Assembly (NCBI GenBank): GCA_965279515.1
Contig: CBDIID010000003.1
Coordinates: 1,472,001-1,536,000 of the forward strand
Source: Turneriella sp.
GTDB lineage: Bacteria; Spirochaetota; Leptospiria; Turneriellales; Turneriellaceae
Direction of reading: 5' to 3'
DNA: 64,000 bases
Numbering within the stretch: the first letter of the stretch is position 1; every line of letters begins with the position of its first letter. Both the position numbers and the translations under genes were made by a program. Below the pieces are notes generated by a model. That model worked only from the letters and a program-made list of their open reading frames with translations. It was not told the DNA's origin and did not search any database. This document shows, piece by piece, positions 39,032-41,976 of the stretch.

Positions 39032-39078
39032 TCTCCATGATGCACGAGGCATCGTGGAGACGGCGCGCACGGATGCGC
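39032..39078. repeat. Two hairpins with ACGAG and ACGGAT loops
   Basis: TCTCCATGATGC-ACGAG-GCATCGTGGAGA and GCGC-ACGGAT-GCGC. Confidence 0.65.
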
Positions 39079-39079
39079 T

Positions 39080-39655
39080 TCATACCGTCTCCTTAAATTC
39101 ACTAGCCTTAAAGACCGGCAACAGATCGACGCCGTGTTCGGCAAGGGCCGCAGCCCCGCCCTCTTCGCGGTCGAGAATACAATACGCCTGGCGTACGATA
39201 AAGCCGGCCTCTTTCATCGCGGCAAATGCCTTGAGCGTTGAGCCGGCGGTGGTGATAACGTCGTCGACAAGAACACAGGGTGTATTTGGGTCAATCCCCT
39301 TCAGCATCTCAATTCGTTTGCCCGTGCCGTGGTCCTTCGCTTCTTTGCGCACAATCGCCGGAATCAGGCGTGCGGGACTTACAACAGTGAGACAGGCGGC
39401 GTAAATGATGGGGTCTGCGCCCATTGTCAAGCCCGCCGTCACGACTTCACCAAAATACTGCTGCGCAATTTTACCAGCGATGACCCGGCCTGCGAGCGCG
39501 AGAAACTCGGGCTGCAACAAGGTCTGTTTGAGGTCGAAATAATAAGGGCTTTTTTTGCCCGAGGCCAGTGTAAAAGGCTCTTCGTGGTTCTCGCGGTATG
39601 AAAATTTTCGGATCGCTTCTTTAAGAGCGGCCTTATCGGCTTCGAGGCTCTGCAT
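39080..39655 (-). CDS. pyrE: Orotate phosphoribosyltransferase
   Basis: FTLASGKKSPYYFD, GLTMGADP, VRKEAKDHGT, LVDDVITT. Confidence 0.95.
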   Translation of the reverse strand: MQSLEADKAALKEAIRKFSYRENHEEPFTLASGKKSPYYFDLKQTLLQPEFLALAGRVIAGKIAQQYFGEVVTAGLTMGADPIIYAACLTVVSPARLIPAIVRKEAKDHGTGKRIEMLKGIDPNTPCVLVDDVITTAGSTLKAFAAMKEAGFIVRQAYCILDREEGGAAALAEHGVDLLPVFKASEFKETV

Positions 39656-40998: not shown

Positions 40999-41072
40999 GC
41001 GGCTGTAGCTCATTTGGATAGAGTATTTGGCTTCGAACCAAAGGGTAGCAAGTTCGAATCTTGCCAGCCGCA
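40999..41072 (+). tRNA. tRNA-Arg (anticodon TCG)
   Basis: GCGGCTG/CAGCCGC acceptor, TTTGG-CT-TCG-AA-CCAAA, GCAAG-TTCGAAT-CTTGC; CCA not encoded. Confidence 0.95.
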
Positions 41073-41092
41073 AAAAAAAAATCGGCTACCGA

Positions 41093-41250
41093 GCGGCTGT
41101 AGCACCGAAACGGAGATCGCAAAGCGATCACATTTGGATAGAGCATTTGGCTTCGAACCAAAGGGTAGCAAGTTCGAATCTAATGCGCACGGAGGCGCTA
41201 TAGCTGGCGCCTGGCAGGAGGCCATCTTTGGCGCCAGCTTGCCAGCCGCA
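41093..41250 (+). other. Second tRNA-Arg(TCG) copy interrupted by two hairpin-rich inserts
   Basis: Matches 40999-41072 apart from inserts at 41104-41130 and 41182-41239 and one substitution (GAGT to GAGC). Confidence 0.85.
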
Positions 41251-41385
41251 CACGAGGTGCGTAGGCACGCTGCTGACATGGATGTCATCTACGCAGCGAG
41301 CCAGCCGCACACGATGACATAATTTTGCCAATCGGCGGCAAAAAATATATCTTATCGAAATTAAGACTTAGTATAAGGAGTTCAA

Positions 41386-41976
41386 ATGATCAAAATTGGA
41401 AACAAAGCCCCCGACTTCAAAGCCACAGCGCTCGTCGGCAAAGATTTTAAGGATGTCTCGCTCGCAGACTATAAAGGCAAGTACGTCGTACTGTTCTTTT
41501 ACCCGCTCGACTTCACGTTCGTCTGCCCTACCGAAATTATCGCATTCTCGGACAAGGCCGCCGAATTCGAAAAACTCGGTGCGCAGGTCATCGGTTGCAG
41601 CGTCGACAGCAAGTTCAGCCACCTGGCATGGACAGAGATTCCCCGCGACAAAGGCGGCATCGGTGACATCAAGTACCCGATTCTCGCAGACATCACGAAA
41701 GATATCGCACGCAGCTATAACGTGCTGATCGAAGAAGCGGGCATTGCGCTGCGCGGTGTGTTCATCATCGACGGCAAAGGCGTGCTGAAATCGGCGACTG
41801 TGAACAACAACAACGTCGGCCGTAACATCGAAGAAGTGCTGCGTACGGTTCAGGCAGACCAGTTTGCCGAATCGCACCCCGGCGAAGTCTGCCCCGCCAA
41901 CTGGACACCCGGCAAAGATTCGATGAAAGCCGATACCAAAGGCTCAAAAGAGTATTTCGCGAAAGCAGGCAAGTAA
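41386..41976 (+). CDS. ahpC: 2-Cys peroxiredoxin
   Basis: [22 protein letters not shown]. Confidence 0.96.

Follow-up and report, generated by a model that had tools for sequence, protein, structure and literature searches.

The tRNA-Arg(TCG) locus of this Turneriella sp. genome raises the question of whether a second, expanded copy of a tRNA gene is a dedicated regulatory RNA or the remains of a gene struck by mobile elements. The locus lies in a 64,000-nt stretch of DNA (the window, to which positions without a contig name refer). A preliminary description of the window had left two options: a tRNA-shaped RNA that displays CsrA sites, or a pseudo-tRNA repeatedly struck by hairpin-inserting elements. 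The analyses described below fit the second option. The second tRNA-Arg is a broken twin of the intact gene that holds three copies of two kinds of hairpin module, and it is likely a scar of tiny mobile elements.

Architecture of the tRNA-Arg(TCG) Locus

The features of the locus are as follows, all on the forward (+) strand.

40999..41072, +, intact tRNA-Arg(TCG); RF00005, 69 bits; sole Arg-TCG gene called in the genome
41073..41092, +, spacer of 20 nt, an A-run and a small hairpin (41082-41092)
41093..41103, +, twin part equal to tRNA nt 1-11, ending in TAGC
41104..41130, +, D-arm module (type B), 27 nt, in place of T12; two small hairpins
41131..41181, +, twin part equal to tRNA nt 13-63, from the D loop into the 3' T strand, of which it includes two bases
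41182..41239, +, type A module (T-arm insert), 58 nt, CT at both ends
41240..41250, +, twin 3' end, acceptor strand
41241..41314, +, third unit, a type A module between 15-bp direct repeats (41241-41255 and 41300-41314)
41325..41353, +, promoter-like site TTGCCA-17-TATCTT in the interval between the third unit and ahpC; consensus match only
41386..41976, +, ahpC peroxiredoxin gene; neighbor and synteny anchor, outside the element

A second tRNA-Arg copy 20 nt past the intact gene, as first described, was borne out base for base, with its start at 41093. Between nt 13 and 63, 50 of its 51 positions are identical to the intact tRNA, the single change being T>C at 41144; the chance of an exact copy of at least 11 nt beside a tRNA is 0.010-0.019 per tRNA. 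Also present as reported are the 27-nt D-arm insert with its hairpins CCG-AAA-CGG and GATCGC-AAA-GCGATC, the 58-nt T-arm insert with two hairpins, and the 15-bp direct repeat. In the T-arm module, a small hairpin (41185-41198, loop ACGGAG) precedes a 10-bp stem (41202-41239) that bulges on its 3' side (TCTTT) and encloses an inner hairpin whose loop is AGGAG. The characterization of the inserts as GGA-loop hairpins thus applies to the T-arm insert but not to the D-arm insert, which has no GGA loop. The nested layout of the third unit (inner loop ATGGAT, bulge TCTAC) was correctly recognized, although its first small hairpin at 41247-41261, with the loop ACGAG and no GGA, had been omitted. Together, three GGA loops lie on one strand within 41185-41287, the arrangement sought for a sponge of the CsrB/RsmY type.

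The locus folds more stably than expected (z = -4.2 and -4.8), and in the isolated twin the acceptor stem has a model-fold probability above 0.95. The preliminary description held that a full T stem could still form. Such pairing exists on paper, but its CT is shared with the 10-bp stem of the insert, and the T-stem probability in the model fold is ~0 in the twin versus ~1.0 in the intact tRNA. The cloverleaf would cost 9.0 kcal/mol in the twin and 3.4 kcal/mol in the intact tRNA, but the fold model also gets the D and anticodon arms wrong in the intact tRNA, so that the T-arm contrast alone is informative. Since the T-loop is opened by the insert, no elbow can form. Judged as a functional tRNA, for which a cloverleaf with an intact D stem and a 7-nt T loop would be expected, the twin fell short, and it was called by neither ARAGORN nor RF00005. 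Across the locus and five twin loci of relatives, tRNA was the sole Rfam family matched at E <= 1.

An assembly artefact, raised earlier as a possibility, can hardly account for this arrangement. Contigs of run X1, which may be the source sample, span 41032-41165 and 41152-41523 with 0 differences; the same twin occurs in run X13, from another organism, and comparable twins are present in two further genomes whose chromosomes are single contigs. The one observation on the other side, an X2 contig (depth 2.9) that jumps from 41024 to 41145 across a 37-nt exact repeat, is most simply explained as a collapse over that repeat of the two copies. This comparison at the twin covers X1, X2, and X13, the last being the one run compared among X6-X21, which have small shares; contigs of X5 (share 0.23) do not reach it.

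tRNA Twins and the Type B Module

Twins of this kind are common in Turneriella. With a twin defined as an exact direct or inverted copy of at least 11 nt of the tRNA itself within 300 nt, loci flanked by a twin or fragment number 9/37 distinct tRNA loci in the present genome (G000), 11/32 in G011, and 11/33 in G002 (38 tRNAs each in the latter two), or 31/102 overall versus 3/63 in the outgroups (G038, 2/31; G015, 1/32). An intact gene adjoins every twin seen. The excess is concentrated in tRNAs containing TAGCTCA, 30/57 of which have twins versus 1/45 of those without it, counts to which related genomes do not contribute independently.

The most common form comprises nt 1-11, a type B module, and a resumption at nt 13. 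Type B modules consist of CGAAGACG / CGCAAAGCG hairpin pairs, and also of GCRAAATGC-type hairpins; they contain no GGA loop and follow TAGC at tRNA position 12. They occupy this position in twins of Met, His, Asp, Ile, Ala, Val, Thr, Arg-ACG, and Arg-TCT tRNAs in addition to Arg-TCG. A narrow type B pattern has matches in 7/20 genomes of the family, and 12 of the 13 matches adjoin a tRNA (6/14 Turneriella genomes versus 0/6 of other genera). A near-copy of the His type B module follows GTAGC inside an attC-like site. Other twins bear two-hairpin inserts at positions 36/37, 44-46, or 55-58, with up to three inserts per twin.

Several further observations were made at tRNA genes. Exact inverted copies (17-21 nt) of tRNA 5' ends lie directly upstream of Thr, Val, Met, and Arg tRNAs (G000:C3:895870-895889; loci L078 and L086 in G002; L061 in G011); in a precursor, these could pair with the tRNA's own 5' strand. 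In G038, which belongs to another order, a related multi-hairpin element with an CATGGATG loop follows tRNA-Asp and tRNA-Tyr (L136 and L133), also with a repeat of the tRNA 3' end plus flank. A scan of viral sequences for the D-arm junction gave six matches, none beside a tRNA, which were taken as chance. Two intron-type tRNA calls were dropped because of their coding-like context, and no tmRNA gene was called by ARAGORN in the whole genome. In a relaxed scan, identical tRNA calls recur every ~23.5 kb on contig C1 and every 6.6 kb on C2, which suggests that these two contigs are concatemers of shorter circles.

A Genome-Wide Family of Type A Modules

The T-arm insert and the third unit of the Arg locus are both type A modules. 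This module begins with a 3-6-bp hairpin with an AN(G)GAN loop; past a short linker comes a second such hairpin, seated on a long stem that bulges on its 3' side. The module measures 51-61 nt, and the bulge starts with TC in 54 of 72 cases. A layout detector found 72 modules at 65 loci in this genome, whereas six altered loop patterns yielded 0-1 and the reversed genome yielded none. The outer stems comprise 71 distinct sequences among the 72 modules, their pairing being built into the detector. GGA is present in 120 of the 144 loops and absent from 24. A fixed 16-nt type A pattern has 5-20 matches in each of six Turneriella genomes (0 in the reversed control) and 0-6 in 395 other spirochaete genomes; a metagenome scan for the T-arm junction gave 0 matches. 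One further module lies in the window itself, at 39045-39100 (G000:C3:1511068), between two minus-strand genes and with its GGA loop antisense.

Type A modules are mobile. Nearly half of the loci (30/65) lie inside called ORFs, for example those of TatD, Sir2, and RNase R; gene calls came from a simple purpose-made caller, which missed AT-rich cassette genes. In tatD, a 57-nt module is present, in frame, in 1 of 14 genomes. In sir2, there are two independent sites for 54-nt modules, again in frame; of the 10 orthologues parsed (13 were fetched), 3 have a module at one site and 4 at the other, with target repeats of 6-10 bp. Two further orthologues contain a degenerate 45-nt insert and a 15-nt insert. 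This patchy presence at orthologous sites is direct evidence that the modules are gained or lost as a unit. Repeats of at least 7 nt flank 12 of the 72 modules, compared to ~1 for shuffled pairs, some of the 12 being tandem arrays; overall, target repeats range from none to 15 bp, unlike those of a classical transposon. The sir2 gene of this genome (L191, G000:C3:957612-958454) holds two in-frame modules within ~170 nt, as does a RibD_C-domain gene (L192, 2641604-2642368), there on opposite strands.

The preliminary description had noted that the same hairpins occurring genome-wide in random orientation would mark a decayed pseudo-tRNA with insertions. This is largely what was found: the 72 modules are dispersed, and between co-directional genes they are oriented 12 sense to 10 antisense. 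The 65 loci show no leading- or lagging-strand bias (29:36), and a strand figure of 97:40 is driven by cassette arrays. Within ORFs, the ratio is 21 sense to 9 antisense (p = 0.04). Stop codons were rejected as the cause of this bias, with 170 versus 165 open frames.

The Arg Locus in Relatives

The architecture of the Arg locus differs in all seven other genomes inspected. The twin of G008 differs in its D module and lacks the T-arm insert; G001, G002, and G009 have a single 3'-end unit only, G004 has a tandem array, and G011 and G016 have neither twin nor unit. The modules at the place of the third unit in G001, G002, G009, and G004 have different stems. At this 3'-end site, the outer stems are wholly different between genomes, with 6-8 of 8 pairs kept. 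Loop counts at orthologous sites, obtained by a part-by-part parse that ignored overlapping tandem-array rows, show that GGA comes and goes: the first loop has it in 2/5 genomes and the inner loop in 5/5 at the Arg 3'-end site, the inner loops at Leu-TAG have it in 0/3, and the loops of sir2 site 2 toggle between ACGAG and AGGAG and between AGGAT and ACGAT.

Absence from relatives, another outcome foreseen as marking decay, holds for the double-insert copy at the Arg locus of 7/7 other genomes, yet run X13 (another organism, probably a DNA run) contains the same double-insert twin, with the third unit replaced. Its D-arm hairpin has two compensated pairs (41117/41127 and 41120/41124), while an anticodon-stem pair of the twin is broken (41148 with 41160), indicating that the structure of the module was kept and the shape of the tRNA was not. 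By the total for that piece, the T-arm part differs from the window at no more than one position, compared to 28 differences in ~520 for ahpC. This near identity counts against pure decay and suggests either conservation or recent conversion. Within the genus, tRNA-Arg(TCG) has two acceptor-stem versions, starting GCGGCTG and GCGCTCG (L003/L028 in G008, L012 in G004, and X13). In G008 and X13, the intact gene and its twin do not share the same version, a hint of an old duplication or of conversion between twin and gene.

Candidate Enzymes and Integron-Like Cassettes

Genes that could mobilize the modules were sought. No Y1 transposase was found flanked by modules among the 20 of 28 Y1 loci examined; the 18 with readable flanks all bear unrelated hairpins, and Y1/RAYT transposases were rejected as mobilizer on this ground. 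Short IS200-like Y1 genes occur genus-wide (L021, G000:C3:2616152-2616472; L103-L123), flanked by perfect hairpins with centers GGTTTAAACC, GAATTAATTC, or GCTTAAGC, some of them in tandem arrays. A reverse transcriptase was likewise rejected, given its single match in this genome and its cassette context: the 512-aa ORF L130 (G000:C3:1300966-1301448) lies beside an attC-like site and is probably a cassette-borne defense gene. The tyrosine recombinase L197 has matches in 12 of 13 other Turneriella genomes and none in G015 and G018, which lack modules. Elsewhere in the order, however, 9 of 20 genomes match it as well, among them G024, which has one match to the module pattern. Its distribution thus fails to single out module-bearing genomes, and L197 is a candidate mobilizer only.

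In two large arrays of long attC-like sites (G000:C3:88000-172000 and 3730000-3806000), single AN(G)GAN hairpins recur near the site ends: 33 of 74 left ends have one 29-37 nt ahead of them, and 23 of 94 right ends have one behind them, in most cases at 29-30 nt, against a background of 3.7%. All but one are on the same strand. Among cassettes with their longest ORF on the GGA strand, 21 of 24 are flanked by hairpins, compared to 8 of 41 others. The hairpin shared with cassette ends is a lead, and no more, on how integron cassettes are made.

Evaluation of Alternative Explanations

Could the GGA modules have been retained for CsrA binding, with those behind tRNA genes acting as growth-rate-coupled CsrA sponges for which the acceptor stem or the repeated 3' end would serve as a processing signal? 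We consider this unlikely, although several observations keep it, and with it the first option of the preliminary description, alive. The genome encodes fliW-csrA. Leptospira CsrA binds a GGA hexaloop in electrophoretic mobility shift assays, and the loops of the modules match the CsrA consensus RUACARGGAUGU (PMC8668096, accessible part). CsrA probably binds the GGA-bearing loops when these are transcribed. In the same direction point the rRNA-linked repeats of Escherichia coli (RrA/B/F), which bind CsrA in vitro (PMC8144298), the proposal of TwoAYGGAY as a CsrA binder (PMC4333381), the predicted stability of the twin's acceptor stem, the nearly unaltered T-arm module of X13, and the sense orientation of hairpins, which is 26:2 near tRNAs in addition to the bias in ORFs and, at 21:8, in cassettes. 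Such a bias is also expected from insertion into a transcribed, displaced strand or via RNA, and thus does not decide the CsrA question. On the other side, one-sixth of the type A loops (24/144) are without GGA and orthologous loops gain and lose it, type B, the most common twin insert, never has it, intergenic modules are nearly balanced in orientation, the pattern is expanded in Turneriella only, and 19 tRNA-operon repeats of E. coli score below 0.01 as CsrA binders in the accessible part of PMC8144298. A sponge RNA sought as a conserved locus with its GGA kept failed to emerge from the comparison of relatives, in which one run (X13) alone has the same twin. A tRNA-shaped RNA displaying CsrA sites is unsupported as a conserved single RNA, and the case for a dedicated tRNA-scaffolded RNA is weak. 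Any CsrA binding predicted from the loops would be a by-product or a later use.

Other explanations concern how the twins arose. They might be by-products of the integron-like tyrosine recombinase acting on the attC-like cassette arrays, or else att scars left by integrative elements of which only a few hairpins remain, an idea we regard as improbable. It would accommodate the hairpins near cassette ends, the type B module within an attC-like site, the absence of L197 from the module-free G015 and G018, and the partial tRNA duplication that integration commonly causes (PMC9897764). However, L197 extends to genomes such as G024, no cargo or integrase gene was found at any twin inspected, and the inserts have no core sequence in common across breakpoints. 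To our knowledge, integrases do not use position 12 or the variable loop as sublocations. Retro-copying is, in our estimate, slightly more improbable still: a reverse transcriptase on pre-tRNA would stall in the core, where this is structured or modified, and jump to module RNA and back, and the chimeric cDNA would recombine beside the gene. The strict sense orientation at tRNAs agrees with this, as do several inserts per twin at recurring places (12, 36/37, 44-46, 55-58, and 60-63) and the loss of position 58 from the Ala twin of G011; such tRNA positions may be modified and stall reverse transcriptases. Yet the only reverse transcriptase match in this genome sits beside an attC-like site, the base that would block is kept at most breakpoints, and flanking untranscribed-looking repeats and the 17-21-nt inverted 5'-end copies fit fold-back DNA synthesis better. 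Finally, a strand-specific hairpin-writing process might copy tRNA genes and drop structure-defined modules at U12, the variable loop, the anticodon loop, and the T-loop, and might also supply the GGA hairpins fixed 30 nt from cassette ends. This broader proposal is speculative and rather unlikely. If true, the making and movement of cassette ends and TwoAYGGAY-like elements could be read from the twins, and every new insertion would come under CsrA control through its sense-strand GGA loops.

A Proposed Model for Module Insertion into tRNA Genes

The explanation we prefer, with a probability of roughly 60%, is that tiny, non-autonomous modules move as folded single strands and favor tRNA genes, where only hits coupled to duplication survive. 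The modules would be recognized as folded single strands, so that their stems could change in sequence with no loss of pairing or of the loops. Being folded and heavily transcribed, tRNA genes would be hot spots, entered on the sense strand. A hit in a single-copy tRNA gene would survive only with a local duplication, and the spare copy would then gather further modules and decay. The data show that type A modules are mobile, that type B prefers one site, and that twins are in excess; we infer single-strand recognition, the coupling to duplication, and the participation of an enzyme. Against the preferred explanation stand the non-random orientation wherever transcription is clear (tRNAs, ORFs, and cassettes), the failure to tie a mobilizing gene to the modules, the prevalence of GGA in their loops, the near identity of the T-arm part in X13, and target repeats too variable for a classical transposon.

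Comparison with Known Systems

The published systems most similar to the modules are compared here on the basis of the accessible parts of the cited sources. TwoAYGGAY (RF01731) likewise consists of one hairpin after another, both with C-G-closed loops of the A(N)GGA(N) type, and has many copies per genome (PMC2864571, PMC4333381). The modules have two hairpins, with AN(G)GAN loops of which only some are AYGGAY. They differ in the nested second hairpin with its TC bulge, in a size of 51-61 nt, and in the many loops without GGA. RF01731 has no match at the Arg locus at E <= 1, and its gathering threshold of 43 bits was not reached in this genome, where the best score was 24.4 among 150 of 191 candidates scored. 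No basal stem of the TwoAYGGAY type recurs on inspection of the 72 parsed modules; at the Arg locus, the tRNA acceptor stem alone closes the hairpins. The accessible TwoAYGGAY literature does not mention tRNA twins.

The tRNA-linked repeats of E. coli (among them RrA/RrB/RrF) are units behind a tRNA that end in a copy of the tRNA 3' end, sometimes in tandem (PMC8144298). The same layout was found for the third unit, in G001, G002, and G009, in the G004 array, and in the Leu-TAG pair of G011. Here, the repeat is 10-15 bp rather than 18-19 bp, and type A also occurs at ~60 non-tRNA loci and within genes. The accessible part of that source describes no near-full-length twins bearing D-arm inserts for the E. 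coli repeats, and the Arg locus and five twin loci of relatives have no match to RtT or a related Rfam family at E <= 1.

GTAG-tagged REPs associated with RAYT/Y1 transposases are also small bulged palindromes, some of them in genes (PMC3733652), and the position of type B after (G)TAGC resembles the GTAG tag. In contrast to REPs, the stems of the modules vary in sequence and no inspected Y1 transposase is flanked by modules. The accessible parts of PMC3733652 and PMC3184786 report no such elements at tRNA genes, and that of PMC3733652 does not mention Leptospira.

Rickettsia palindromic elements and cyanobacterial short dispersed repeats are in-frame palindromes in protein genes whose structure is kept while their sequence drifts, and the enzyme that moves them is unknown. 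Their sequence differs from that of the modules, and we know of no systematic tRNA duplication with position-specific inserts in either group.

The tRNA fragments at att sites of integrative elements resemble the twins in being partial tRNA copies beside an intact gene (PMC9897764). In Turneriella, by contrast, the copies enclose no cargo, both 5' fragments and near-full twins occur often, and the breakpoints include position 12 and the variable loop. In the literature searched, which took in few subscription papers, we found no description of such twins or of a position-12 module in TAGCTCA tRNAs. For annotation, such twins are pseudo-tRNAs and not new small RNAs.

More generally, TwoAYGGAY-like elements are suspected to be mobile: Li et al. 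infer a mobile-element-like expansion, with 1,693 of 16,086 matches in coding sequences, and leave the link between mobility and regulation open (bioRxiv 10.64898/2026.09.22.753630, accessible part). For modules of this kind, Turneriella has both filled and empty orthologous sites, together with named enzymes that contain in-frame insertions, and each twin comes with its own empty allele. With filled and empty sites and built-in empty alleles side by side, the junctions, the strand, and the choice of target can be read directly.
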